Shown piece by piece: positions 215-63,792 of a stretch of DNA of 64,000 bases. The stretch covers positions 58,482 through 122,481 of the forward strand of contig DHHM01000016.1 of the NCBI GenBank assembly GCA_002403305.1, written 5' to 3'. The position numbers were made by a program, and so were the translations under genes. Numbering within the stretch: the stretch's first letter is position 1; each line of letters begins with the position of its first letter. The stretch is from Bacteroidales bacterium UBA4772 (GTDB taxonomy: Bacteria; Bacteroidota; Bacteroidia; Bacteroidales; VadinHA17). The notes beneath the pieces are model-generated. The model searched no databases, was not told the DNA's origin, and worked only from the letters and a program-made list of their open reading frames with translations.

Positions 215-309
215 ATGAAACTTGCATGAGCAGTAACTCACAAAAGGAGTTTATTATTTAATTTCGTGCAAGTTCCTTTAAGCCGATGAAATAAACATGT
301 TATTATCAA
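215..309 (+). repeat. palindromic cassette copy A1 (95 nt unit)
   Basis: ATGAAACTTGCATGAGCAGTAACTCACA...TTCGTGCAAGTTCC...GCCGATGAAATAAAC. The left arm is the inverted complement of the right arm. First of a tandem pair. Confidence 0.9.
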
Positions 310-404
310 ATGAAACTTGCATGAGCAGTAACTCACACCGGAAAATGATTATATTTCTTCATGTAAGTTCCATTAGACCAATAAAATAATAATCAATTAG
401 CCTA
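310..404 (+). repeat. palindromic cassette copy A2 (95 nt unit), ends exactly at the ATG of the 405 CDS
   Basis: ATGAAACTTGCATGAGCAGTAACTCACACCGGAAAATGATTATATTTCTTCATGTAAGTTCCATTAGACCAATAAAATAATAATCAATTAGCCTA followed by ATG at 405. Confidence 0.9.
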
Positions 405-1322: not shown

Positions 1323-4300
1323 TACTGCCTTAGCGCCATATATTTGGCATATAGTTCATTGAACCCTGCATTAAGCTCTTCGGCGAGATCAGTCTCACCG
1401 TAGTCATAGCAGGTCTGTATCAGCGGTGAAACTATCTGGAGTGTGATAACAATCTCCTGTTCCGCGTACAGGGCAACGGAGGGCACCTGATTTATCAGGT
1501 ATTCAGCACGACTGAAATAATAGTCTGCCAGGCCTCGGGCAAGCTCATTGGCCTTCTCTCTTTTCCCGGCAGCAAAACAGACAGATATTGTCTCCGGCAT
1601 ATAAAAATCATATCCCAGCTTTTCTGTCGGGAAAAGTTCCAGGCATCTGTCAATGACAGCCGAAGCCCTGACGGTGTCTCCCTCCTCAAGCAAGGCTCCG
1701 GCCAGCCTGGCATGGTTGAGCCTTGCCCGCACCACAGTGAGAGTGCGCTTGTGGTAGTAATCTATGTTAACATCCGGGTCTGCAGCACCGCCCCAGACAA
1801 ATTTGTTCATCATGTTATCGTACAGGATGTCTGTATTTATACGGCCGTAATCGAGCCTTCCCCTGTTGACTCCCTTCACCGGCACCAGTCTGTAGGCAAT
1901 GCCTTCCAGCTGGAAATATTCCTCCAGTCCCATGGCATCGTCATGCTGTCCGGCCACAAAATATATCGGTCGCTCCCAGTCGTTGTGGGCAATGATATCG
2001 AGGACCATCAGCTGGCTCTTCATCAGCCACTGGCCTTTGAGGTTGATATCTATGTATGGCACTATTCTGTCTGCATCCTCTGGCCTGACGGTTCCGTTGG
2101 CCACCACTTTGGCCGAATCAACCGGGATGCGTATGGTACGTGTTGGGATATAATAAATCTCCTCACCGTACATTTTGAGTTTTGACACTTCGCTGCCGCT
2201 GTTGATGAACCTCATCACCTCCTTTGCCGTTGCCGGCTCTTTGACGCGTTCGAATACCGCCACCTGGTTGTTTACCCCGTCATAGTACAGTTTCTTGGGC
2301 AGGCTTATGGGCAGCGGTTCGGAGCTGTATGCCTTCATCTTCATCTGGTCAATATACCAGTCGGTGTTGAGCAGCATCAGGTTGCACACCCGCACATCGG
2401 TACGCATGCCTTCCACCTCCTGGGCATACCACAGCGGGAAGGTGTCGTTGTCGCCGCCGGTAAATATCACCGCCTGCGGGGCGCATGAGTGGAGGTAGTT
2501 GAATGCCACATCCCGGGCAAGGTACCTCCCCGACCTGTCATGGTCATCCCAGTTCTCGGCAGCCATCAGTGCCGGGACGGCGGCAAAGGCAATGACGGTG
2601 GCGGCGATGGCTGCGGGCTTCTCAGTCACCGCCTTTCGCAACAGCTCATAAAGTGCCAGTACGCCCATGCCTATCCAGATGGTGAAGGCATAGAACGAAG
2701 CAGCATATGCATAATCGCGCTCGCGCGGCTGGTTGGGAGACTGGTTGAGGTATACCACAATGGCTATCCCGGTCATCACGAAGAGCAGCGACACTATCCA
2801 CCAGTTGCGCACATCACGGTTGAAGTGCCACAGGAAGCCGGCAAGGCCCAGCAGCAGCGGCAGCAGGAAATAAGTGTTGCGCGAGGGATGGTTCCTCATG
2901 TCATCAGGCATATCCTTCAGTGAGCCTGTCCTTGGTGCGTCAATAAAGTTTATTCCGGTGATCCAGTTGCCGTTCACCGGTCCCCCGAGGTGCTGTATGT
3001 CATTCTGACGGCCGCTGAAGTTCCACATGAAGTACCGGAAGTACATAACCCCGAACTGGTACCGGAACATGAACTTCAGGTTCTGTCCGAAGGTAGGCAC
3101 ACGCAGGGTAGTCGGCTCTCCCGACTGCGGGTCGGTGACAGTGACCGCCTTTCCCCCGGTGCCGGCATACTCTTCATAAACCCTCCTGTGATCAGGTGCT
3201 TCGCTCCACATCCTGGGCAGGAAAGTCACGAACCTCTCATCATACTCGCGCTCGGTGGCACGGTTGGTGATCACATATTTGCCGTCAACAGGATTATAGG
3301 TAGGCTTACCCTTCGTATAATCGGTTATGGGGGCATTGTAATAAGGACCGGTAAAGAGGGGACGCTGGCCGTACTGCTCGCGGTTGAGGTAATAAAGCAG
3401 TGCGAATGGGTTTGACGGGTTATTCTCATTCATGGGGGTATTTGCCGTTGATCTGATGACTATGGTGGCAAACGACGAATACCCTATAACGATGACGGTC
3501 ATCGCCGTCAGGATGGTGTTAAGCGCCACACGCTGACGCGTTGAGAGGTACCATGCACCGTAGATGAGCAGGGCAAGGAAGAGGAGGTTTGCCGCCAGTG
3601 AGTCTGTCAGCAGCCACATGCCCGACAGCAGAAGTGTCACCGCCGCCAGCAGGAACCCCTTTCTGCCGTCACGGTGGGTAAAGGAGTACCATACCGAGAG
3701 GATCAGTGCAGTGACAAAAAGGAGCAGGTGAATGACCATGCCGCTGTTGAAGGGCATGCCCAGGCTGTTTACAAAGAAGAGTTCAAACTTCGAGGTGACC
3801 CTGAAGATCCCCGGTATAATGCCGTACATTATCAGTACCAGCAAAATCACTGATACACCGGCAGATGCTGCCAGTCCCTTCCATGAGAACTGATACTTGC
3901 GGAAATACCAGACAAATACTATTGCCGGTATTGCCAGCAGATTTAGCAGGTGCACCCCTATTGAGAGCCCCATCATAAAGGCAATGAGTATAATCCACCT
4001 GTCAGCATGGGGCTCATCGGCCTCATCCTCCCATTTGAGAATGGCCCAGAAGACCAGTGCGGTGAAGAGTGAAGAGGTGGCATAGACCTCGCCCTCAACG
4101 GCTGAGAACCAGAATGTGTCAGAAAAGGCATAGGCCATGGCGCCCGTCAGTCCGGCACCGAGAACGGCGATGATCCTGCCGGGGGTATAATCAGACTCCT
4201 GCTTCAGGAAGATCCTGCGTGCAAGATGGGTGACGGTCCAGAAGAGAAACAGTATTGTCAGTGCACTGGCGAGTCCTGACATGGCATTGATCATCATTGC

Positions 4301-4528: not shown

Positions 4529-4635
4529 AACTCTCTCTTTTCCATTTGCCGGTAATACCGCACGAAAATAATAAGATTTTGGAGTGGCGCGGTGGATATC
4601 AGCCATTTTTGGTATTTTTGAAGAAACCGCCCTGC

Positions 4636-7623
4636 ATGAGGAAATTCATTATTCTGCTCTTAGTCAGCATCATAACTGCTACGGGTGCTGTAGCGCAGTA
4701 TTATGATACGGGGCAGGATCCGGCCTCACTGCGGTGGCGTCAGATACGCACTCCCCATTTCCGCGTCATCTTTCCCGTGGATTTTGCCGACGGTGCCGCG
4801 GAATATGCACGGCTGCTGGAGGATTCATACAGCAGGCTCTCCCACCTCTATCCTGATGCCAACGTCTCCGTTCCGGTTATCATCCACAGCCACTCTATGC
4901 TCTCAAACGGCTATGTGAGCTGGGCTCCTCGCAGGATGGAACTCTATCCTATCCCGGGCCAGGATAACCTGCCGATGTCTCCTGCCCGGCAGCTTGCTGT
5001 GCATGAGACTGCCCACGTCCTTCAGCTGGCATCACTAAACAGGAGAGGGCTGGGGAGGGCAGTATGGTACCTCCTGGGAGAACAGGCTGTCGGGCTGAGT
5101 GCCGTGGAGATACCCATGTGGGCCTTTGAAGGCGACGCCGTCTATGCCGAGACGGTCACAGGAGTGTCAGGCCGGGGCCGCAGCAACGCCTTCATACAGG
5201 AGGCCCGGGCACTGGCGGCCGGCCCCGGTGGCATCTACGGGTATGACAAGATGCTGGCGGGATCGTACAGACACTTCACACCTGACCATTACGTCTTCGG
5301 ATACCTCATGATGAATCATCTTCACAACACCGACAGCAGCGCATGGATCACCGCCGTCAGGAAGGTGTCGTCAGGCTATCCCTTCAATCCCGTCAACAGG
5401 AGCCTCAGACAGGTTGCGGGACTTACCAAAAAGAGTCTTTATGATTCTGTTTTCGCGACGCTGGAGAGACGGTGGCGGGAGTCAGAGAGCCACCACGGCT
5501 ACACCGGTTATCCTGCGCTGAACCTCCCGGCCCGAAGAGACCACGTGAACCACTATATACCCCACCGCACAGCTGACGGCACCATTATCTCACTCAAAAG
5601 CTCCATGTCCGCCCCCACAAAATTTGTGATCACTGATGAAAGTGGTGGTAAAGAGCATGTTCTGACCACCACCGGTTATATTTATCCCTATATTTTCTCG
5701 TATAATGACAGTACTGTAGTATGGTCAGAACTGCACCGCGACATCCGGTGGGACAACCGCGATTACTCTGTCATCAAGAAGATGAGCCTGGATGGCGGAG
5801 GGATGGAGCAGCTCACCCGGCGCTCCCGTTACAGTGCCCCCGATCTCTCGCCCGATGGAAGAACCATTGTGGCGGTCTCAACCACTCCTGAGCTGCGATG
5901 CTCCCTGGTATTTCTCGATGCCTTCACGGGCGAAGTGCTGATGGACCTGGTACCTCCTGAAAACCTCTTCCTGCAGCGGCCGGCATGGTCATCCGACGGC
6001 AGTGCCGTGACGGTGGTGACACTCAGCGACAGGGGAGAAGGCATCCGTACCTACCGGCCGACAGGCAAGCGATGGAAGGTGAACATGGAAGAGAGTAATA
6101 CAGATATCATCCAGGCGGAGATTTACAATGACACCCTCTTTTTCCTGGCCCAGGGCGACGGCTCTGACAACATCTACCGCATCACCAATGACACCGTCGT
6201 CACCCGTGTCACAAGGTCGCGCTACGGTATATCAGGCTTTTCAATATCCGACGGAGAGATTCTCTTTTCGGATTACACTACGGACGGCTTTGTAATTGCC
6301 TCGGAGAAGAGCTCTGCCGATGCGGGAGAGCCGTCGGGCAGCATGTACGGCGTCATCCCTGACCCTGCACCTTTTCCGTCAGCCGACGCGGGAGAACCGG
6401 CATGGGCCGGTCGTGGTGTCACCAATGATGAGGCTGCCTCAGCAGGAGATACTGCAAGCAAACAGTATAGCGTCATCCCCGCTACGGCTCAGGCAGCCCC
6501 TGATGACAAAACGGACAGGTCTTATTTTCAAATGCCTGAGTCAGAACCTTACAGTAAGCTTGCCAATCTCTTCAACTTTCACAGCTGGTTTCCATTTTAC
6601 GGAGACCTTGACCTTATCACGACAGACCCGACGAGCATCAGGCCGGGGGTTACGCTGATGTCACAGAACCACCTGAGCACCCTGATAACCACCGTGGGAT
6701 ATGAATACAGCGACGAGACCCACCGTCTTCATACAGGTATAATATGGAGCGGATGGCACCCCGTGATAGAGGCTGACATAGCCTTCGGGGGTGACCGGAT
6801 AATCAGAAAGGACACTGCCTCCCGACCTGATCCTTCCGATATCAAAGGTGACATAACCGTCAATGCCAGCATCTATGACCAGCTCTGGTTTGCCTACGGG
6901 AAGTTCAGACAGCTTCTGATGCCTGCACTCTATGTCAGTTACCGCAACGCCTATACATATATCAGTGAGGAGCATGGGTACGACAGGGGATTTGCCTTCG
7001 TCACCGGCAGGCTTTACTTTTCCAACACCTTCCGGGTGGCATACCGTGACATCAACCCCAGGTGGGGGCAGGTAGCAGATCTCAGGGTGACCTCAGCCCC
7101 GCTGGACAGGGACCTCTACGGCACCAGGAAATATGCCGGGGGAACACTCTATCTCCCCGGCATCTTCAGGAACCACAGCCTGGTGCTCAGGGCCGGGTAC
7201 GAAGACCAGTCGCCCTTCGGTAAGATGCTCTACGGTAATGCCCTGTCATATCCAAGGGGATATAATGAAACAGTCGTGTCGGAAAAGCTCATCTCCCTCT
7301 CAGCAGACTACACCATGCCTCTCTTCTACCCTGACCTGGCGGTGGGCAGCCTGCTATATCTCAAGAGAATAAGAGGCTCGGCATTCTATGACGCCTCAAG
7401 AGGGGAAAACACCTACAACTACGGATCAGGGAGCTATGCAGGAGGACTCACCGGATACAGTTCATTCGGCACCGAGCTGCTTGCAGATTTTTATCTTCTC
7501 CGGTTTCCGTTCGAGATAAGCGCAGGAGCCACTGCCGGTTATATCCCCTCGCAGGAGCGCTTTTTCATCAACGGCACTGTCTCAGCGAATATCTACGGTA
7601 CCGTCCTGGGCAGAGAGCGCTGA
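4636..7623 (+). CDS. secreted multidomain protein: peptidase-MA-like N-domain, TolB/PD40-like repeats, beta-rich C-terminal domain
   Basis: Signal peptide MRKFIILLLVSIITATGAVAQ (start chosen at 4636 rather than 4546). HETAH plus a downstream WAFEGDAVYAE (gluzincin-like HExxH...EGxA). SPDG/SSDG propeller-like repeats. Duplicated SADAGEP low-complexity patch. Confidence 0.7.
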   Translation: MRKFIILLLVSIITATGAVAQYYDTGQDPASLRWRQIRTPHFRVIFPVDFADGAAEYARLLEDSYSRLSHLYPDANVSVPVIIHSHSMLSNGYVSWAPRRMELYPIPGQDNLPMSPARQLAVHETAHVLQLASLNRRGLGRAVWYLLGEQAVGLSAVEIPMWAFEGDAVYAETVTGVSGRGRSNAFIQEARALAAGPGGIYGYDKMLAGSYRHFTPDHYVFGYLMMNHLHNTDSSAWITAVRKVSSGYPFNPVNRSLRQVAGLTKKSLYDSVFATLERRWRESESHHGYTGYPALNLPARRDHVNHYIPHRTADGTIISLKSSMSAPTKFVITDESGGKEHVLTTTGYIYPYIFSYNDSTVVWSELHRDIRWDNRDYSVIKKMSLDGGGMEQLTRRSRYSAPDLSPDGRTIVAVSTTPELRCSLVFLDAFTGEVLMDLVPPENLFLQRPAWSSDGSAVTVVTLSDRGEGIRTYRPTGKRWKVNMEESNTDIIQAEIYNDTLFFLAQGDGSDNIYRITNDTVVTRVTRSRYGISGFSISDGEILFSDYTTDGFVIASEKSSADAGEPSGSMYGVIPDPAPFPSADAGEPAWAGRGVTNDEAASAGDTASKQYSVIPATAQAAPDDKTDRSYFQMPESEPYSKLANLFNFHSWFPFYGDLDLITTDPTSIRPGVTLMSQNHLSTLITTVGYEYSDETHRLHTGIIWSGWHPVIEADIAFGGDRIIRKDTASRPDPSDIKGDITVNASIYDQLWFAYGKFRQLLMPALYVSYRNAYTYISEEHGYDRGFAFVTGRLYFSNTFRVAYRDINPRWGQVADLRVTSAPLDRDLYGTRKYAGGTLYLPGIFRNHSLVLRAGYEDQSPFGKMLYGNALSYPRGYNETVVSEKLISLSADYTMPLFYPDLAVGSLLYLKRIRGSAFYDASRGENTYNYGSGSYAGGLTGYSSFGTELLADFYLLRFPFEISAGATAGYIPSQERFFINGTVSANIYGTVLGRER

Positions 7624-29267: not shown

Positions 29268-30683
29268 TTAGGCTCTGATAGCATTTATTATGTTCAATTT
29301 GAATATCCTCCGCACACTGAATGTGATGGCTATGAGCAGTATCAGCAGCACAATCGCTGCCTGCCACAGGTAGTAGGTGTCCGGGAGATGCATGGGCATC
29401 ACCGCTTCAAAGCCGTACTCCTCGTACATCTTTGCCAGCTCCCCGGTGAAGCGCAGGGGCCTTGCATAGCCATAGTAGACAATGGGCAGTGATGCTGCAA
29501 TACCTGCCAACACACCCAGCAATCCGATGAACAGCATCTCCATGCTTACTATGCCGGCCAGCTTACGCTTCTGCATCCCTATAGAGACCAGCATGCCGAA
29601 CTCCCTCCTCCGTTCAGCCATCATCATAAGTACTGTACCGGATACGCCAAAGGCTATCACCAGGTAAAGGATGCCTATCATGATTGCCCCGCTCTTGTTG
29701 TCAGCCTCCATCTGGTTCAGCAGGAGGGCATTCATCTCCTTCCAGTTGCGTATTACCAGCCCGTCATTGCAGGAGGCGGACAGCCGCTGTTGCGTTTGCA
29801 GAAGCTCCCTGTCATCTGTATCGCTTATACTTATTATGGCCGAGGTGACCATTTCGGGTGCAGCATAGAGATACTGTGCATCTGCCAGGGTGATGTAAAC
29901 AAATGCATTGTCAATCTCGGGGTTTGGCATGCTCACTATACCCTTTATCACGAAGAGTCCGGCTGCGGATACCCCGTGATAGCCCTGTCCCATCACCACC
30001 AGGGTGTCTCCAACGTCTGCGCTGAGATAACGCGACAGTCCGTATCCTATAACCGCCCGGCCGGAATCTGCCGAAGTGAGGTAACGGTTGTCGAGTGATG
30101 CATACTTCCTGAAGAGAGGCATCACTGCTGCTGAATCATCATCGCCTATGCCGAGGTCAGAGATGAGGCTCTTTTCATCGGTCCAGGCCTCACCGGAAAA
30201 TACATCGACCAGCTTAGCGGTGCGGGACGGCAGGTTTTCTCCTTTAAGAGCTTCGGTTGCATCAGGAGTAAGGCGGTATTTTATGAGACGGTTCTTTATG
30301 TTCAGCGTCTTCTGCTCATTGTCGGGATCCATGCCGATCACCATCACACCCCGGGTGCGACTCCCGGCAGCTGCCAGCGCGAACGATTCCAGCTTTGGAA
30401 TAACCCCCGTTACATTGGGGTCTGCCTCTATTATGTCAGTCAGCGACTGCTCAGGAACAAACCCGTTGTCAAGATTTGATTCATCAAGGTAGTCACTGTG
30501 CTGAAGCTGCAGGTAACCGGAGTATGATTCGATGACATCCCTGTACATCTTTTCGTATGTACCCAGCTGAAACGACCTCATCACCAGTGCAAAGAAGACT
30601 GCAAAGAATACCGAGGCTGCCGTTATGAGGGTCCTCCTTTTGTTTCGCCATAGATTTCTCCAGGCAAGCTGATAGTTCTTCAT
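29268..30683 (-). CDS. FtsX/MacB-type ABC permease, paralogue of the preceding gene
   Basis: WRNLWRNKRRTLITAASV TM1, a large periplasmic insert, and a C-terminal FtsX domain. Preceded by cassette copy B. Confidence 0.88.
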   Translation of the reverse strand: MKNYQLAWRNLWRNKRRTLITAASVFFAVFFALVMRSFQLGTYEKMYRDVIESYSGYLQLQHSDYLDESNLDNGFVPEQSLTDIIEADPNVTGVIPKLESFALAAAGSRTRGVMVIGMDPDNEQKTLNIKNRLIKYRLTPDATEALKGENLPSRTAKLVDVFSGEAWTDEKSLISDLGIGDDDSAAVMPLFRKYASLDNRYLTSADSGRAVIGYGLSRYLSADVGDTLVVMGQGYHGVSAAGLFVIKGIVSMPNPEIDNAFVYITLADAQYLYAAPEMVTSAIISISDTDDRELLQTQQRLSASCNDGLVIRNWKEMNALLLNQMEADNKSGAIMIGILYLVIAFGVSGTVLMMMAERRREFGMLVSIGMQKRKLAGIVSMEMLFIGLLGVLAGIAASLPIVYYGYARPLRFTGELAKMYEEYGFEAVMPMHLPDTYYLWQAAIVLLILLIAITFSVRRIFKLNIINAIRA

Positions 30684-30776
30684 TCGATTATCTTATTATT
30701 TCATTGGTCGAAAGAAACTTACATGTAGTAAAAACAATCATGTCCAATTGTGAGTTTCTGTCCATGTAAGTTTCAT
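30684..30776 (-). repeat. palindromic cassette copy B (93 nt), intercistronic
   Basis: Minus-strand reading: ATGAAACTTACATGGACAGAAACTCACAATTGGACATGATTGTTTTTACTACATGTAAGTTTCTTTCGACCAATGAAATAATAAGATAATCGA, then ATG at 30683. Confidence 0.88.
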
Positions 30777-30798: not shown

Positions 30799-31569
30799 CT
30801 ATCTGATGGTCTTCATATTCTGCTGTGAGAAGAAGCTCTCCTCAATCTTTACATTGAATTTTACCTCTGTTATATTAAGGATGGTCTTGCGGCCCGGCTC
30901 CTCGGCGGGGATCAGTTCAATGGTGGTGGGTATAAACCTTCCGTCCATTGTCCTGAGATCACTGCCCCGCTCCGTTCTGACCAGGTAGCCGTCCTCATCA
31001 TAGAGCTCGGCTTTCAGGACAATAAACTCATTTTTATCAACCCACCACAGCTGGTGACTCCAGAGAACGTCGGCATCATCCTTTGCCGTCAGCCTGATCT
31101 TGTGGCACATGCGGCCGTCGATCTCCTCCTCTCCCTCGAAAGTGTGGGTGTAGTCTTCCACCACGGAGGACTCCCTGAGGATATCATCATTGGTGTAGTC
31201 TGACCCCATCCAGCCCTGCGACATCATTGAGGGCGGCAGCTTGATAAGCCTGTTGATGGCGGGATTCCAGCTCCACATCTCCGTGCCCCGTTTGAGAAAT
31301 GTCTGTCCCTTTTCGCGCGCCGGCGCGGTGATTAGCGTGAGGGCATAGTCATCTTCCAGGGCCCACGATTTGAATTCTATTGTGCGCTGCCATGAGGAGC
31401 GCACGATGGTCATGCTCATGACGCTGTAGCCCGAGAGCTCACCGTTGAATTTCTCGTCTGTTTTTTTGATTATTTCTTTGGCGCTCAGCTGCTGCGCGGT
31501 GGCCGGCCCGCTTGCCGGCAGCAGGAGGAGCATTGCGATGCCTGTGATTATCTGACCTGTTAGTTTCAT
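30799..31569 (-). CDS. LolA_like periplasmic protein (outer membrane lipoprotein-sorting protein family)
   Basis: Signal peptide MKLTGQIITGIAMLLLLPASGPATAQ. IKLPPSMMSQGWMGSDYTNDDILRESS matches my recollection of the LolA_like family. Confidence 0.8.
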   Translation of the reverse strand: MKLTGQIITGIAMLLLLPASGPATAQQLSAKEIIKKTDEKFNGELSGYSVMSMTIVRSSWQRTIEFKSWALEDDYALTLITAPAREKGQTFLKRGTEMWSWNPAINRLIKLPPSMMSQGWMGSDYTNDDILRESSVVEDYTHTFEGEEEIDGRMCHKIRLTAKDDADVLWSHQLWWVDKNEFIVLKAELYDEDGYLVRTERGSDLRTMDGRFIPTTIELIPAEEPGRKTILNITEVKFNVKIEESFFSQQNMKTIR

Positions 31570-31665
31570 TAGATTATTTGTTTATTATTATATTGGACTA
31601 ATGGAACTTGCATGAAGTTTACAGTCATTTCCCCGGGAGGAGTTGCTGCTCATACATGGTTTCAT
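31570..31665 (-). repeat. palindromic cassette copy C (96 nt, left arm degenerate)
   Basis: Minus-strand reading: ATGAAACCATGTATGAGCAGCAACTCCTCCCGGGGAAATGACTGTAAACTTCATGCAAGTTCCATTAGTCCAATATAATAATAAACAAATAATCTA, then ATG at 31569. Its head ATG overlaps the stop of the upstream ORF (ATGA). Confidence 0.8.
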
Positions 31666-39923: not shown

Positions 39924-41071
39924 CAGAAAATACAGACTTCCCACACCTTACACCCCGGGACGACAGGCTGCAGGGCGAAGGGAAGCTGTTCCGCCGGCCG
40001 GAGGAGCTTACTGATGAGCAGTTTGATCTCCTCGCTGCCGCGTGGGCCGATGATGCTCTCGGCGGCGACAGTCTCGCAGAGACAGAGGCGGCGCTGTCCT
40101 CCAGTCCTGAAAGAAGGATGCGCGCTGAAAGCTTCCGGCAGATCAGGCTCTCTCCTCTGATTGACAGGTGGGAGGGCAGGAACCGAATACTGAAAGCTGA
40201 TCCGGGTACCTACGCCATCAGGCGCATACTGATTGTCACACTGACTGTCGCCGCGGCACTGGGAGCCCTGGTAATCCTGGGCCCGTTAAAAACGGAACCC
40301 GACAACAAATCAGCGGGTCCGGCTGTTGCTGAGGCACAAAAAATTGGTGAGGCCATAACAATAGCTGAAGCACAGACAATGGGTGAGGCCCTCATCTCCG
40401 AAGCATCACCGGTGATCGTGGCCCTGCCGGCAGAGAGTGTGACTCCTGCGACACAAAATATTAATCAAACTGCCGGTGCGGCTAACCCATCCATTGACAA
40501 AACAAGCAGTACCCGGTTGGCCGGTGTCATCTCCGGATCTGCTGCTGACATAACGAGTAAGCCGCGGCCAGTCGGGGTGATCCCGGAATCACTTAAGCCG
40601 GAAAGAATAGTGCCGCAACAGAATGATATTACTGCCTCAGTTACCAACTCATTCATCCACGCTAATAGTGAGCCGCGAACCACCGCGGAAATTGCTGAAT
40701 ACCGTGATCTGGCAGAGTCTATTGCCTTGATGCATGATTTTTCGGGTGCAGTGCCCCTGCTGGCTGCCGGACCGGAAGCATCCCGCCTGGCTCCGGTGGA
40801 GCTTAAGGATATAACCCCTCTTCCTGCTCTGGAGAGAGAGGAAAACTGGCTGGTGAGAGGTCTCTCACTGCTGGCGGAGGCCATAACAAAAGAACCGAAA
40901 AGTGTTGACGGATACTTTATTGCCGATGCCTGCATCAGAGGAGTAAACAGAGTGCTGGGCTGGGAAATGGAGCTCGAACAGGAGAAAAATAATGAAGGGG
41001 AGCAACTTGCAACGAATTTCAGCTCTTCACTGCTAACCTTCTCTGCCCCGGCGAAAAAAACTCATCCCTGA
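39914..41071 (+). CDS. putative anti-sigma factor (single-pass membrane protein)
   Basis: Overlaps the sigma gene by 10 nt. N-terminal cytoplasmic segment, one TM helix (ILIVTLTVAAALGALVILG), and a low-complexity periplasmic part with an AEAQxxGEA repeat. Confidence 0.55.
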   Translation: MAMTENTDFPHLTPRDDRLQGEGKLFRRPEELTDEQFDLLAAAWADDALGGDSLAETEAALSSSPERRMRAESFRQIRLSPLIDRWEGRNRILKADPGTYAIRRILIVTLTVAAALGALVILGPLKTEPDNKSAGPAVAEAQKIGEAITIAEAQTMGEALISEASPVIVALPAESVTPATQNINQTAGAANPSIDKTSSTRLAGVISGSAADITSKPRPVGVIPESLKPERIVPQQNDITASVTNSFIHANSEPRTTAEIAEYRDLAESIALMHDFSGAVPLLAAGPEASRLAPVELKDITPLPALEREENWLVRGLSLLAEAITKEPKSVDGYFIADACIRGVNRVLGWEMELEQEKNNEGEQLATNFSSSLLTFSAPAKKTHP

Positions 41072-41113
41072 GTGTAACTTTCCGGGTGCATTGATCGTCC
41101 CACCAATAAACAA

Positions 41114-41183
41114 CAGAAACTTGCATGAGCAGAAACTCACAGCAGTAAATGACTACTACATTCATGCAGGTTCCATTCGACCA
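41114..41183 (+). repeat. palindromic cassette copy D1 (70 nt short form, lacks A/T tail)
   Basis: cAGAAACTTGCATGAGCAGAAACTCACAGCAGTAAATGACTACTACATTCATGCAGGTTCCATTCGACCA. A tail-like remnant CCACCAATAAACAACA lies just upstream. Confidence 0.85.
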
Positions 41184-41277
41184 GTGAAACTTGCATGAGC
41201 AGGAACTCGCAACAGGTTTTGATTGTCAAATTCATGTAAGTTCCATTCGACCAATAAAATAATAATTATATAACCGA
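41184..41277 (+). repeat. palindromic cassette copy D2 (94 nt)
   Basis: GTGAAACTTGCATGAGCAGGAACTCGCAACAGGTTTTGATTGTCAAATTCATGTAAGTTCCATTCGACCAATAAAATAATAATTATATAACCGA, then ATGAAATAA. A duplicated 25-nt tail follows, then the gene ATG at 41303. Confidence 0.9.
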
Positions 41278-41302
41278 ATGAAATAATAATTAAATAAACG
41301 CC

Positions 41303-42403
41303 ATGAAGAGAACATTGTTAACAGTCACTGTGATAATTGCGCTGATCCTTCCGGTGCAGGCACAGGAGAAGGAAGAAAAACTGAAGGAGTTGGAGAAACT
41401 TGAGGCGGAGGCAGGTACGGTCACTCCCCCTGACACCCTGAAAGCGAAAACGGACATCAGTGCAGCAGAGGCAGACACCCTGAGGCAGGAGGCAGAAGCG
41501 CTGCCGGCAGAGGAGGGAAACCTCCCGGCAGAGGAGGCGGAGGAGATAATGATTGAAGAGCCGGAATCTCCGGCTCTTCCCGGCGATGGTGAAGACACTG
41601 CCCGCATTACAATAGGTGAAATAGTCACCGTGGAGGACACGGGTGACGAGACAGTGATAAGGATCGGGAAGAAGGCTGTCAGGATTCTGACAGACGGTGA
41701 CAACGCGGAGATCCGGATGGAAGATGAGGAAGAAGATGCAGATGAAGAGTTTTCCACTCCCGGCAGACGCTTGTTTGAGGGCCACCTCGGAGGCATTGAG
41801 ATCGGCTTCAACAGCTATTCCACCGGACAGTGGGGCCGTAATCCGGAAATGGCCGATGACTATCTCGACCTGAACACGGCAAAATCTTCCAATTTCAATA
41901 TCATCTCACCGCCAGTGAGCCTGGGACTGTCGCGCCACATCGGTATCGTGTCGTCCCTGGGTGTCAGCTTCAACAACTACCGCTTTGACAACAACAACTC
42001 GGTCATCCCGGGAGACGGCGGGATCGTGGAACCATATTATCCTGCTGATGGAATAAATTATGAAAAGAGCAAGCTTGCTACCGTCTACGGCGTGCTGCCC
42101 GTAATCCTGGAGGCACAGATACCCGTGACATACAGTAGCACCCTGAACATCGGGGCGGGCATCATCGGGGCAGTGAAGCTGGGATCACATACCAAGGTGG
42201 TCTACTACAGCGACGGAAAGCAGAAGGATAAGAACCATGACGACTTCAGCCTCAATGTGCTGAGATACGGAGTCACAGCACGGGCAGGGTACGAGATGGT
42301 ACAGGTGTACGGCACCTGCTACCTGTCACAGATGTTCGAAAAGGGCAAAGGACCGGAACTCTATCCCTTTGAGGTCGGCATAGCCCTGACCATCAACGAC
42401 TGA
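41303..42403 (+). CDS. outer-membrane beta-barrel protein with an acidic low-complexity N-terminal region
   Basis: Signal peptide MKRTLLTVTVIIALILPVQAQ. A Glu/Ala-rich ~130-aa segment, then an alternating beta-strand C-terminal half. Lies downstream of the sigma/anti-sigma pair. Confidence 0.6.
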   Translation: MKRTLLTVTVIIALILPVQAQEKEEKLKELEKLEAEAGTVTPPDTLKAKTDISAAEADTLRQEAEALPAEEGNLPAEEAEEIMIEEPESPALPGDGEDTARITIGEIVTVEDTGDETVIRIGKKAVRILTDGDNAEIRMEDEEEDADEEFSTPGRRLFEGHLGGIEIGFNSYSTGQWGRNPEMADDYLDLNTAKSSNFNIISPPVSLGLSRHIGIVSSLGVSFNNYRFDNNNSVIPGDGGIVEPYYPADGINYEKSKLATVYGVLPVILEAQIPVTYSSTLNIGAGIIGAVKLGSHTKVVYYSDGKQKDKNHDDFSLNVLRYGVTARAGYEMVQVYGTCYLSQMFEKGKGPELYPFEVGIALTIND

Positions 42404-42484: not shown

Positions 42485-42652
42485 TTTGGCGCAACAGCGC
42501 GGTCAGCAGAGTGTTGTACATTTGGCACAACAGCACATTCAGAAGAGCGGGCCGCAGGGCGTTGTATATTTGGAACAACAGCGCATTCAGAAGAGCGGGC
42601 CGCAGGGCGTTGAAGATTTGACGCAGCGGCACGTGTCGCAGAGCGTTGAAAC
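42485..42652. repeat. tandem array of four 36/48-bp units upstream of pepE
   Basis: Units begin with TTTGG/TTTGA at 42485 (36 bp), 42521 (48 bp), 42569 (48 bp) and 42617 (36 bp). The 48-bp units carry a 12-nt insert CGGGCCGCAGGG. Confidence 0.9.
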
Positions 42653-58774: not shown

Positions 58775-58845
58775 TGGTCGAATGGAACTTACATGGAGTA
58801 AAACAATCATAACCTTTTGCGAGTTGCTGCTCATGTAAGTTTCAT
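58775..58845 (-). repeat. palindromic cassette copy E1 (71 nt short form)
   Basis: Minus-strand reading: ATGAAACTTACATGAGCAGCAACTCGCAAAAGGTTATGATTGTTTTACTCCATGTAAGTTCCATTCGACCA. Confidence 0.88.
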
Positions 58846-61521: not shown

Positions 61522-61914
61522 ATGACACGGAAAAAGGCATCACTGGTTAAGGGAGAAAGGCTCTGCGGGGTAAAGGCCGTCAGCGAACTCTTTGCCCGAG
61601 GAAAGTTACTGAGCGATCCTCCTCTCAGGATAATATACAGGACAGCCCCGGCAGAGAAATCGCTGAGCACCGTAAGAGTGCTCATATCAGTTCCGAAAAG
61701 AAATTTCAAAAAGGCAACTGACCGCAACCTGATAAGAAGGAGAATCAGGGAGGCATGGAGGCTCAACAGAATGCCCCTGATGGAGAGGCTCGACGGCAGC
61801 GGCAGGCGCATGGACCTTGCCATCATATGGAATGACACTCAGATAAGGCCTTATGACTTTGTGGTGAAGTGTGTCACCGGGGTGATCAGCAGATTGACGA
61901 ATCTTAAATATTAA
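61522..61914 (+). CDS. rnpA: ribonuclease P protein component
   Basis: LISVPKRNFKKATDRNLIRRRIREAWR RNR-motif region. 130 aa. Confidence 0.85.
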   Translation: MTRKKASLVKGERLCGVKAVSELFARGKLLSDPPLRIIYRTAPAEKSLSTVRVLISVPKRNFKKATDRNLIRRRIREAWRLNRMPLMERLDGSGRRMDLAIIWNDTQIRPYDFVVKCVTGVISRLTNLKY

Positions 61915-61919
61915 CTTTG
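61912..61919 (+). promoter_or_regulatory. candidate -7 promoter box TAACTTTG
   Basis: TAnnTTTG match that begins with the rnpA stop codon, 14 nt upstream of cassette copy F1. Confidence 0.35.
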
Positions 61920-61933
61920 TGAAAACGGTCTTT

Positions 61934-62026
61934 ATGAACTTGCAAAAGCGGGGACTCTCAATAGGAGATGACGTTAAAACTTCATGCAAGTTCAATCCGG
62001 CCAGTAAAATAAATATTTATACACGA
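61934..62026 (+). repeat. palindromic cassette copy F1 (93 nt, degenerate)
   Basis: ATGAACTTGCAAAAGCGGGGACTCTCAATAGGAGATGACGTTAAAACTTCATGCAAGTTCAATCCGGCCAGTAAAATAAATATTTATACACGA. Confidence 0.8.
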
Positions 62027-62121
62027 ATGAAACTTACAAGAGCAGTAACTTACAATAGGTAATGATTATTTCTCTTCATGTAAGTTCCATTAGACCAATA
62101 AAATAACAATCAAGTAATCTA
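62027..62121 (+). repeat. palindromic cassette copy F2 (95 nt), ends at the ATG of the S41 protease gene
   Basis: ATGAAACTTACAAGAGCAGTAACTTACAATAGGTAATGATTATTTCTCTTCATGTAAGTTCCATTAGACCAATAAAATAACAATCAAGTAATCTA, then ATG at 62122. Confidence 0.9.
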
Positions 62122-63792
62122 ATGAAAAGAGGCAACAGAAAGAGAATATTGCTGATACCGGTGATGGCACTGGCAGCTATGCTTGCGTTGGGGTTTCTGA
62201 TGGGCGGACAGGAGAGCAAGGACTTCAAGCTCACCAGGAATCTTGATATATATATATCGCTTTTCAGGGAGCTGAACGCTTTCTATGTAGATGAGATAGA
62301 CCCTGAAAAGCTTGTCACAAGAAGCATCACAGCGATGCTTTCAACCCTCGATCCATATACTGTCTACTACCCAGAAGAGGAGCGCGAGGATCTCGATTTC
62401 CTCACCACCGGGAAATACGGCGGTTTTGGCTCCCTGATAAGAAAGTCAGGTGACTATATCGTTGTCACCAATGTCTACCGGGGGTTCCCTGCCGACAAGA
62501 ACGGCATCAGGCCGGGTGACATGATGCTTAGTATTGACGGCACATCACTCAAGGGAGTATCCTCCGAGAAGGCTTCTGACATGCTCAAGGGCGAGCCGGG
62601 GACTGCGGCTGAGATAACCTTCAGACGCAACGGGGAAGAGTTTGCGAAAACCATAAAGAGAGAGAGGATATCTATCTCTGCAGTGCCCTATTACGGGATG
62701 ATCGATGATAACACCGGATATATCCGGTTCACCAATTTCACACAAAACTGTATCGCTGAGGTGAGGGATGCTGTCACCGACCTGAAGGATAACCTTGGTG
62801 CCACTGATCTGATACTGGACCTCAGGGGCAATCCCGGTGGCCTTGTCAATGAGGCCGTGGAGATTGTGAATCTGTTTGTTAGGCCCGGACAGGAGGTGGT
62901 GAGCACCAGGGGAAGGGCAAAACAGTATGATGCCGTTTTCCGTACATCCAGAACCCCGGTGGCCCCCGATATGCCGGTGGTGGTCCTGATAAACAGAGGC
63001 TCTGCATCCGCTTCGGAGATAGTGGCCGGGGCATTGCAGGACCTTGATCGCGGGATCATCGTCGGAGAGAGGTCCTACGGCAAGGGGCTGGTGCAGGTGG
63101 CCAGGCCCCTGAGCTACAAGGCACAGCTTAAGGTGACCACGGCAAAATACTATATCCCCAGCGGCAGATGCATACAGGCTGTCGATTTCTCCCACAGGAA
63201 CGAAGACGGCAGCGTAGGACAGATACCGGATTCGCTGATAAAGACATTCACCACCAGGAATGGCAGGCCGGTGAAGGACGGCGGTGGCATCATACCTGAC
63301 CTGCAGGTGGAGTCAGACATGTTCAGCCGCTTCACCAGCGAACTCTATGTTCAGAACATGGTCTTTGACTTCGCCACGGAATACTACTGGTCGAAACCGC
63401 AGCCATCGTCACTCGACAGCCTGAAGGTGACCGACAGTGACCTGGAGCGTTTTGAACAGTTCCTCCGGGATCGCAATTTCTCATACAGCACAGGTTCGGA
63501 ACTTATGCTTGAGGAGCTCGCCTCCGCGGCCAGAGAAGAGAATCTATATGACGCCAACAGCAGTGAGATTGAGAATCTGAAGGCCGGTCTGAGCCATTCG
63601 CTCGACAGGGATATGACTGCACAGAAGAGCGATATCATTGAGCTGCTGGAGTCGGAACTGGCAGGCAGGTATTTCTACGATGCCGGTTCGGTGAGATATT
63701 CGCTGAAACGCGACAGACAGGTGCAGGCAGCAATGGAAATAGCAGGAGACAGGATGCGCTACAACAACCTGCTGAAAGGTGCAGGAGAGTAA
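62122..63792 (+). CDS. S41 family C-terminal processing peptidase with PDZ domain
   Basis: N-terminal membrane/signal anchor, PDZ (GIRPGDMMLSIDG), LDLRGNPGG, LINRGSASASEIVAGALQD. Confidence 0.92.
   Translation: MKRGNRKRILLIPVMALAAMLALGFLMGGQESKDFKLTRNLDIYISLFRELNAFYVDEIDPEKLVTRSITAMLSTLDPYTVYYPEEEREDLDFLTTGKYGGFGSLIRKSGDYIVVTNVYRGFPADKNGIRPGDMMLSIDGTSLKGVSSEKASDMLKGEPGTAAEITFRRNGEEFAKTIKRERISISAVPYYGMIDDNTGYIRFTNFTQNCIAEVRDAVTDLKDNLGATDLILDLRGNPGGLVNEAVEIVNLFVRPGQEVVSTRGRAKQYDAVFRTSRTPVAPDMPVVVLINRGSASASEIVAGALQDLDRGIIVGERSYGKGLVQVARPLSYKAQLKVTTAKYYIPSGRCIQAVDFSHRNEDGSVGQIPDSLIKTFTTRNGRPVKDGGGIIPDLQVESDMFSRFTSELYVQNMVFDFATEYYWSKPQPSSLDSLKVTDSDLERFEQFLRDRNFSYSTGSELMLEELASAAREENLYDANSSEIENLKAGLSHSLDRDMTAQKSDIIELLESELAGRYFYDAGSVRYSLKRDRQVQAAMEIAGDRMRYNNLLKGAGE

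Follow-up and report, generated by a model that had tools for sequence, protein, structure and literature searches.

The 64,000-nucleotide stretch analysed here (hereafter the window), from contig DHHM01000016.1 of Bacteroidales bacterium UBA4772, contains 11 copies of one hairpin unit, which lie at six loci (A to F) and on both strands. These hairpins are probably copies of a small (approximately 95 nt), non-autonomous mobile DNA element that is confined to a Bacteroidales clade. At positions 41114-41277 two such units, D1 and D2, stand head-to-tail, an arrangement that a preliminary description had read as an attenuator-like device with mutually exclusive folds. We conclude instead that D2, like E2 at another locus, is a nested insertion and that the tandem 'attenuator' topology is a by-product. 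The parts of the D array are as follows, P3 being a second helix discussed below.

41114-41183, forward strand: D1 hairpin unit, with L arm at 41116-41128 (GAAACTTGCATGA) and R arm at 41162-41174 (TCATGCAGGTTCC)
41184-41277, forward strand: D2, a complete 94-nt unit, with L arm at 41186-41198, R arm at 41232-41244 (TCATGTAAGTTCC) and A/T-rich tail at 41250-41277
41244-41280, forward strand: P3 helix of D2, CATTCG (41244-41249) with CGAATG (41275-41280) across the A/T-rich tail, predicted in RNA and DNA folds
41278-41302, forward strand: displaced D1 tail (ATGAAATAATAATTAAATAAACGCC), the same tail being found directly 3' of the D1 hairpin in L024

D1 is truncated after ..CCATTCGACCA by the nested D2, which sits at the internal (A/G)TGAAA of the D1 tail; the inserted segment may equally be written as 41190-41283. 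Just after the leftover tail, the ATG at 41303 starts the gene of an outer-membrane beta-barrel protein (Pfam match). D2 is identical to a copy in the metagenome-assembled genome (MAG) WOFB09 and 97% identical to E2. The recurrence of these sequences is not accidental: five exact occurrences of the 13-mer GAAACTTGCATGA in 64 kb, where about 0.002 would be expected in 128 kb of random sequence, is far beyond chance.

Comparison of copies together with their flanks defines a unit of about 95 nt that starts at (A)TGAAA and stops directly before another ATGAAA. Its left part consists of (A)TGAAA, then CTTRCATGAGCAGnAACTCRCA, then a loop, and its right part of TTCATGYAAGTTCCATTnGACC, an A/T-rich tail of 22-25 nt, TCn'A and the second ATGAAA. 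The L arm is CTTRCATGA, with the GAAA of the left hexamer also entering the stem. Next come a small inner hairpin (TGAG(C)..(G)CTCA), a variable loop, the R arm TCATGYAAGTTCC, ATTNGACC and then the tail. The inverted repeat is thus confined to the 5' 65 nt or so, and the A/T-rich 3' tail has no inverted partner at the 5' end. The tail itself holds the target motif (CCAATGAAAT), which accounts for the nested insertions and explains the 95-nt and 70-nt tandem periods, including that of D1-D2.

The tie to start codons was assessed in 90 distinct full copies, gathered by profile searches on fetched loci (numbered with L), aligned as set A5, and drawn from at least 10 MAGs labelled Bacteroidales or Rikenellaceae and from several metagenomes. 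Another copy follows in 12 cases, leaving 78 terminal copies, and after 63 of these comes an open reading frame (ORF) of at least 60 codons. Such ORFs begin with ATGAAA in 49 of the 63 cases, the commonest distance being 35 nt after the R arm. When the unit enters the ATG-AAA start of a gene, the reading frame and start codon are restored, while the old start codon is left opening a four-codon mini-ORF (MKLA or MKLT, then stop), of the form ATG AAA CTT RCA TGA, which is intact in 62 of the 90 copies.

Filled and empty sites, nesting, near-identical copies at unlinked loci and decay of old copies together point to a non-autonomous mobile element. The F2 insertion (62033-62127, 95 nt) is not found at the same site in the MAG BF4_172 (L020), which there reads ..TTATACGA|ATGAAAAGAGGC.., and comparison of E2 with the same locus gives a clean 70-nt indel; locus A of that genome (L007) carries one unit only. 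D2 (94 nt) is present in L018 and L035 and not in the MAG CALMRD (L024), where the D1 hairpin passes directly into GTGAAATAATAATTAAGTAAACGCC-ATG; in the window D2 lies inside that (A/G)TGAAA, with the D1 tail surviving intact at 41278-41302. Neither B nor C is found in the more distant relatives L093 and L094, whose gap between the LolA-like and FtsX-type genes measures 27-30 nt as against about 110 nt; in the empty site of C in L094 the stop of the upstream gene overlaps the LolA-like start as ATGA. L051 and L081 show nesting that arose independently, again with displaced tails left behind. Identity between units at unlinked loci is 92-97% (D2 and E2; F2 and copies in L041, L006, L058, L087 and L016). 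The orthologous B and C elements show 58-83% identity between genomes, the third codon positions of the adjacent gene 65-71%, and the stems of these old copies gather mismatches. By this measure the old orthologous copies appear to diverge about as fast as third codon positions.

The same comparisons show the unit to insert in one orientation at (A/G)TGAAA and to end in, or duplicate, ATGAAA. Each insertion has (A)ATGAAA at either boundary; D2 has GTGAAA on its left and ATGAAA on its right, so that any target duplication is of 5 nt at most. The data also fit an element that carries its own ATGAAA and inserts after (A/G)TGAAA without duplication.

Folding of the unit bears on how it may spread. 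RNAalifold applied to ten window copies gave a 12-bp stem with one variable pair (GC in four, GU in three, AU in three), confirming both the single variable pair noted in the preliminary description and the states assigned there; copy C, missing from its list, is a fourth G:C copy. The A/C mismatch at stem position 2 is likewise constant in the window copies and corresponds, as had been said, to a G.T wobble on the other strand. The statement that A:C never occurs at the variable pair holds for the ten aligned window copies and fails for the wider family, where 3 of 90 copies have it. Across those 90 copies this cassette stem, P1 (arms of 13-19 nt), has 85.9% of its cells paired; its pair 12:77 is distributed GC41/AU37/GU8/AC3/AA1 and reaches a mutual information of 0.48 bits, compared with 0.22-0.28 for the next-best column.

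A second helix, P3, had been overlooked. It joins CCATT[N]G, immediately beyond the R arm on its 3' side, to C[N']AATG, with which the tail closes and which contains the start codon of the downstream gene. The N:N' pair is distributed CG32/AT23/TG4/TA2/GT1, so that 62 of 80 are paired as against 35.6 ± 4.1 expected (10,000 shuffles). In the 6-bp helix as a whole 93.6% of cells are paired, with a covariation score above all 500 shuffles, and the mutual information of the pair is 0.54 bits versus 0.29 for the next column. The pair states of P1 and P3 are unlinked (16/14/10/10), and descent from two subfamilies therefore does not explain both. With the mutual information at P1 joined by a second, independently covarying helix, the earlier suggestion of selection for pairing is upheld. 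For single units, folding predictions on either strand, as RNA or DNA, give P1 together with P3. The inner hairpin, P2, is tentative: 77% paired, it has few compensatory changes and a 3-nt overlap with P1. Wobbles do not point to one strand. Their counts in the P1 core, 25 G:T versus 26 A:C cells, remove in this larger sample the preference for the sense strand that had been read from the G:T pair; P3 (16 versus 7) shows only a weak trend. The pair-preserving variation most likely reflects folding needed for spread and not a gene-regulatory attenuator.

Several observations weigh against a mobile element. The indels are flanked by direct repeats of 5-7 nt, and deletion by slippage is possible in principle; it is the near-identical copies at unlinked loci and the nesting that give the direction of change as gain. 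No transposase, recombinase or autonomous copy was found, and tblastn with three Y1 transposases (IS200, IS608 and the E. coli RAYT) returned nothing in 680 kb of loci, a weak test. Long variants examined for ORFs (L027, and L055 by reading of the sequence) had extra hairpin modules and no ORF. Copy number in reference genomes is modest (14 and 9 exact-pattern matches), the shuffle controls take no account of how the copies are related, and, given the lack of strand asymmetry in the wobble counts, there may be a role at the RNA level. The unit also departs in structure from the mobile elements it most resembles. Its foot, (A)ATGAAAC / GTTCCATT, has neither the GT[AG]G nor the CGTC tetranucleotide of REP sequences, nor any other foot tetranucleotide known from them, and it forms one large hairpin (P1, with the small inner P2) plus a P3 that closes the tail, as opposed to the two subterminal hairpins of IS200/IS605.

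If the element is mobile, its spread might be pictured as follows. P1 and P3 would be kept paired because only copies able to fold get copied, the folding molecule being most likely single-stranded DNA. Across a tandem or circle junction, P1 and P3 would merge into one 19-bp hairpin, TCN'AATGAAACTTRCATGA / TCATGYAAGTTCCATTNGA, in which one A.C pair is the sole mismatch; the 19-nt arm would then enclose the point of insertion (..ATGAAA|C..), and the junction of such a circle would read ..TCNAATGAAA|CTTRCATGA... The segment TTCCATT can pair with the target and equally with the 3' end of the element itself. Arrangements of this kind serve hairpin- or guide-dependent HUH enzymes (IS200/IS605, RAYT) or recombinases acting on folded sites, and the Bacteroidetes-dominated Y1 subclass 2.6 is one candidate by analogy. 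Taken to its fullest form, the idea would be of a new class of self-guided mobile DNA: TTCCATT, next to the hairpin, would pair with ATGAAA and so choose start codons, and the element would bring a replacement initiation region and start codon that render insertion harmless, the enzyme being either a domesticated host protein or of a new kind. Since such an element would set a mini-ORF and a helix sequestering the start codon before many genes, it might also have been co-opted for genome-wide translational control. We regard this fuller scheme as possible but unlikely.

The remaining copies in the window are these.

215-309, forward strand: A1, 95-nt unit whose left ATGAAA (215-220) opens the mini-ORF ATG AAA CTT GCA TGA
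310-404, forward strand: A2, 95-nt unit ending directly before the ATG (405) of a gene for a 76-aa putative lipoprotein
30684-30776, reverse strand: B, single unit between a LolA-like gene and an FtsX-type permease gene (start at 30683)
31570-31665, reverse strand: C, single unit, decayed in part, preceding the LolA-like gene (start at 31569)
58775-58845, reverse strand: E1, hairpin unit antisense to both flanking genes, with an orthologous single copy in L020
58681-58774, reverse strand: E2, unit nested behind E1 and matching D2 at 97%
61934-62026, forward strand: F1, old, decayed unit with an ortholog in L020, downstream of a Bacteroidetes-type -7 box (TAACTTTG, 61912-61919)
62027-62121, forward strand: F2, young 95-nt unit, 92-95% identical to copies at other loci and not at the same site in L020

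The left ATGAAA of C (31665-31660) includes the TGA stop (31664-31662) of the upstream ORF, the new ATG lying at its right end. In F2 the P3 helix, CATTAG (62088-62093) with CTAATG (62119-62124), takes in the start codon (62122-62124) of an S41 tail-specific protease gene. Terminal copies thus precede the genes of a putative lipoprotein (76 aa) at A, an FtsX-type permease at B, a LolA-like protein at C, an outer-membrane beta-barrel protein at D and the S41 protease at F. E is without a real downstream gene: the ATGAAA after E2 (58680) opens an ORF of just 26 codons that overlaps the 3' end of a convergent MFS transporter gene. Three of the window's roughly seven genuine ATGAAA gene starts carry a copy; if the unit is a mobile element, it therefore alters the 5' leaders of an appreciable fraction of the genes in these bacteria.

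Outside the window, a 20-nt pattern (L arm plus loop) located 32 loci in MAGs labelled Bacteroidales or Rikenellaceae; about a dozen further matches in unrelated phyla equal the expected chance level. A pattern for the R arm and tail located 41 metagenome loci. The exact protein of the gene at F is present in metagenome samples such as ERZ27315072 and JGI 3300000568 and 3300002498. Other metagenomes hold a second subfamily with a different loop and tail. Exact-pattern matches numbered 14 in the MAG C14-10 and 9 in WOFB09; the pattern catches 6 of the 11 window copies, and we put the copies per reference MAG at dozens at least, without claiming hundreds. Proteins encoded downstream of copies elsewhere include short-chain dehydrogenases, an epimerase, response regulators, a tRNA synthetase, kinases and lipoproteins. 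These genes are functionally unrelated and there is hence no regulon; one of envelope proteins, which the first Pfam results had suggested, was dropped given the cytoplasmic enzymes downstream in other genomes. Rfam gave no matches at gathering scores in the whole window, and a permissive scan of 61900-62200 only chance-level ones (E >= 1.9). No homolog of the unit was present in the plasmid and phage collections searched; three viral-contig matches to the inner motif were put down to chance, neither an nhmmer profile nor a covariance model finding the element there. Literature searches by sequence words returned unrelated primers only, and the topics MITE (miniature inverted-repeat transposable element), REPIN and IS200 gave analogues and not the unit.

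Some variants of the unit are recorded here in their own right. Long forms (L055 2540-2670, L082 264-343, L057 7247-7339, L064 721-813 and L027 2300-2470) have extra modules, among them a G/C-rich hairpin (CCCCGCATAGGCGGGG) after the R arm and, as another, an insert of about 20 nt in the loop. A scan for 'orphan' L and R arms that might belong to an autonomous copy was too noisy, the arms cross-matching on the opposite strand. At three places (L016 at about 3935-3960, the region of L009 around 3800, and L038 at about 395-405) a second ATGAAA lies 2-11 nt downstream of a complete unit, with an element-like spacer, as in ATGAAA-CTTGATAACAA-ATGAAAAC; such doubled ends could be footprints of units almost fully deleted or excised. 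In L029 (7560-7615) and L088 (930-1000) one hairpin is followed by two A/T-rich tails in tandem; tails can apparently be doubled, or hairpins disappear, each without the other. A full element (80 bits) on a 1.85-kb contig of a MAG labelled Clostridia (L022, JAFGUQ010000102.1) probably reflects a mis-binned Bacteroidales contig. Just past the 3' end of the window, at about 64.2 kb (L095 3611-3659, reverse strand), a weak covariance-model match (21.8 bits, 49 nt) lies between moaE and thiS homologs; it may represent a copy, short or decayed, that precedes moaE.

The position of the copies naturally raises the possibility of regulation. The Bacteroidetes -7 box has the consensus TAnnTTTG, and boxes of this type lie 15-19 nt upstream of the first copies at A and F, on which account the units are probably transcribed. 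As leader RNA a unit would likely add, on the predicted fold, the four-codon mini-ORF and the stem, together with an A/U-rich region for initiation of the Bacteroidetes type and a weak helix that covers the AUG. Stem, mini-ORF and P3 might then form a host translational switch common to many genes, in which the end of the R arm, CCAUU, could pair either with the AAUG upstream or with the genuine start codon and selection would act through gene expression. The sense orientation of copies directly before start codons, the probable transcription at A and F, a covarying P3 that contains the AUG and the retention of ATG, four codons and TGA in 62 of 90 copies all accord with such a switch, as does the dependence of Bacteroidetes initiation on leader structure in place of Shine-Dalgarno pairing (PMC6847099). 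It is nonetheless quite unlikely to be the explanation: the downstream genes have no common function, about 13% of terminal copies have no gene after them, E runs antisense to the genes beside it, pairing is lost in old orthologous copies, whose divergence is roughly neutral, the same genes in close relatives manage without the element, and the P1 wobbles betray no sense-strand asymmetry. A regulatory role may perhaps have been acquired secondarily, and is not needed to explain the data. The more specific attenuator, in which L1:R1 plus L2:R2 would alternate with a compact R1:L2 hairpin to control read-through, we find hardly credible. The compact hairpin is more than a possibility, since the minimum-free-energy structures predicted for D and for E both contain it, yet any tandem palindromic pair has the same alternative fold. 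The gap between R1 and L2 is not the 7 nt that had been given: measured from one 13-nt core to the other it comes to 11 nt, and with the arms extended to ..CCATT / (A/G)TGAAAC to 6 nt (CGACCA). The absence of an obvious U-tract was correctly noted, there being neither a U-tract nor a terminator-like site in 40950-41350, where the bases after the R arm are CCATTCGACC. Most copies are single (78 terminal versus 12 followed by another), E has no downstream gene, and D2 and E2 are nested insertions of recent date that related genomes lack; with no Rfam match, unrelated downstream genes and old copies that decay, the attenuator-like leader of the preliminary description is not sustained.

Two DNA-level readings can also be set against the mobile element. 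Were the inverted repeat the double-stranded site of a dimeric regulator controlling a regulon, the promoter-proximal position and the strong conservation of the arms in sequence, beyond pairing, would be accounted for. The half-sites, however, are about 46 bp apart from centre to centre, the genes are functionally unrelated, and a protein that reads two half-sites would not be expected to leave covariation in which complementarity persists (G:C to A:T, at two distinct pairs); the polymorphic insertions and the nesting call for mobility in any case, and we hold an operator to be very unlikely. Equally, gene-less cassettes recombined by an integron integrase would share with the unit a folded imperfect hairpin of attC-like length, orientation-specific insertion, a crossover point at G|TT and, on the bottom strand, a stem foot ..GGAAC / GTTTC.. 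containing the AAC/GTT triplets of R boxes. That the copies are attC sites is nevertheless extremely improbable. The R boxes misfit RYYYAAC/GTTRRRY at two of seven positions on each side (bottom strand ATGGAAC / GTTTCAT), and the stem is continuous, with one wobble or mismatch and neither an unpaired spacer nor extrahelical bases. The copies are moreover dispersed at gene starts over 64 kb of core chromosome (with ATP synthase and fatty-acid synthesis genes), not arrayed by an integrase, and no integrase was detected among the 30 window ORFs scanned against Pfam.

Other features of the window are mentioned for completeness. An intergenic tandem repeat at 42499-42620 (period 48, 2.5 copies, 87% matches), between the outer-membrane protein gene and an S51 peptidase gene (start 42690), has TTGTACATTTGG(C/A)ACAACAGC in each unit and could represent repeated promoter or operator sites. 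A perfect tandem repeat at 1224-1284 (28 nt x 2.2, or the 7-nt CAGTCGG x 7.7) lies between a response-regulator gene (815-1219) and the 3' end of an opposite-strand gene for a 1094-aa TMEM260-like protein. The start of a 1025-aa ORF on the forward strand (4546-7623; TTG start, no Pfam match) overlaps the 5' end of this same 1094-aa gene, and the ORF may not be a real gene.

If the mobile-element interpretation is true, the unit follows a 'stealth' strategy not described in the literature searched: a tiny element lands exactly on a start codon, a new A/U-rich leader and ATG are supplied, and the gene survives. In one case it has separated two operon genes whose ancestral form, judged from L094, had a stop overlapping a start as ATGA. 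Such an element can mislead start-codon calling and also RNA-motif discovery, since selection on the fold of a mobile element mimics the covariation of a structured RNA. The complementarity among internal segment, target and element end provides a testable model of target choice, and the element may be connected with the Y1 enzymes of Bacteroidetes that have atypical hairpins on their flanks and are as yet poorly understood (PMC6006769).

Among known systems, the REP/REPIN-RAYT family provides several likenesses. These elements too are short, non-coding, multi-copy and chromosomal, with two inverted arms giving a long imperfect hairpin; they have no transposase of their own and form a diverging population of copies within a lineage, in keeping with which our unit was not found in the plasmid and phage collections searched. 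The arms of the unit, however, are A/T-rich and not G/C-rich, its tail is asymmetric and A/T-rich, and its insertions keep to one orientation and one position at (A)TGAAA, for the most part where genes start and not downstream of them; no RAYT was found in the 680 kb of loci, a weak test. The genes of the Bacteroidetes-dominated Y1 subclass 2.6 (RAYT group 5) are flanked by atypical hairpins lacking GTAG (PMC6006769). The example hairpins retrieved from this subclass (Aequorivita, e.g. GCTAGCGCGAGCG...) are unrelated in sequence to the unit.

The unit resembles derivatives of IS200/IS605 (PATEs/MITEs, single-strand 'peel and paste') in what appears to be strand-specific insertion beside a 4-5 nt target, in lacking terminal inverted repeats and in probably needing a hairpin. 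The complementarity of TTCCATT, with one non-canonical pair, to the target and to the unit's own end recalls the pairing of guide and cleavage site in IS608 (PMC5934647). The insertion point of the unit, in contrast, lies within the stem, where IS200/IS605 cleavage sites are outside the hairpins, and its candidate guide is 3' of the hairpin instead of 5'; the same weak search likewise found no TnpA in the 680 kb of loci. With attC and CTX-phage attP the unit may be compared as a site functional only in the folded strand, with a conserved mismatch near the crossover and orientation-specific integration into a short core shared with the target. Its core motifs match neither attC R boxes nor dif, though, and hundreds of possible ATGAAA targets, with no integrase nearby, take the place of one attI or dif.

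ERIC, Correia (Neisseria), RUP and Rickettsia palindromic elements are likewise palindromic repeats of about 100 nt that occur in transcripts and can alter mRNA structure, those of Rickettsia even inserting without destroying reading frames. They differ in having terminal inverted repeats, or TA duplications, or both orientations, and to our knowledge none of them targets and regenerates a start codon. Classical MITEs, derived from DDE elements, differ in that the unit is without terminal inverted repeats at both ends. By analogy, then, the unit resembles systems that recombine folded single strands and matches none in detail. Among small hairpin-forming non-autonomous mobile elements it is best described as one whose distinguishing feature is that it targets and restores start codons.

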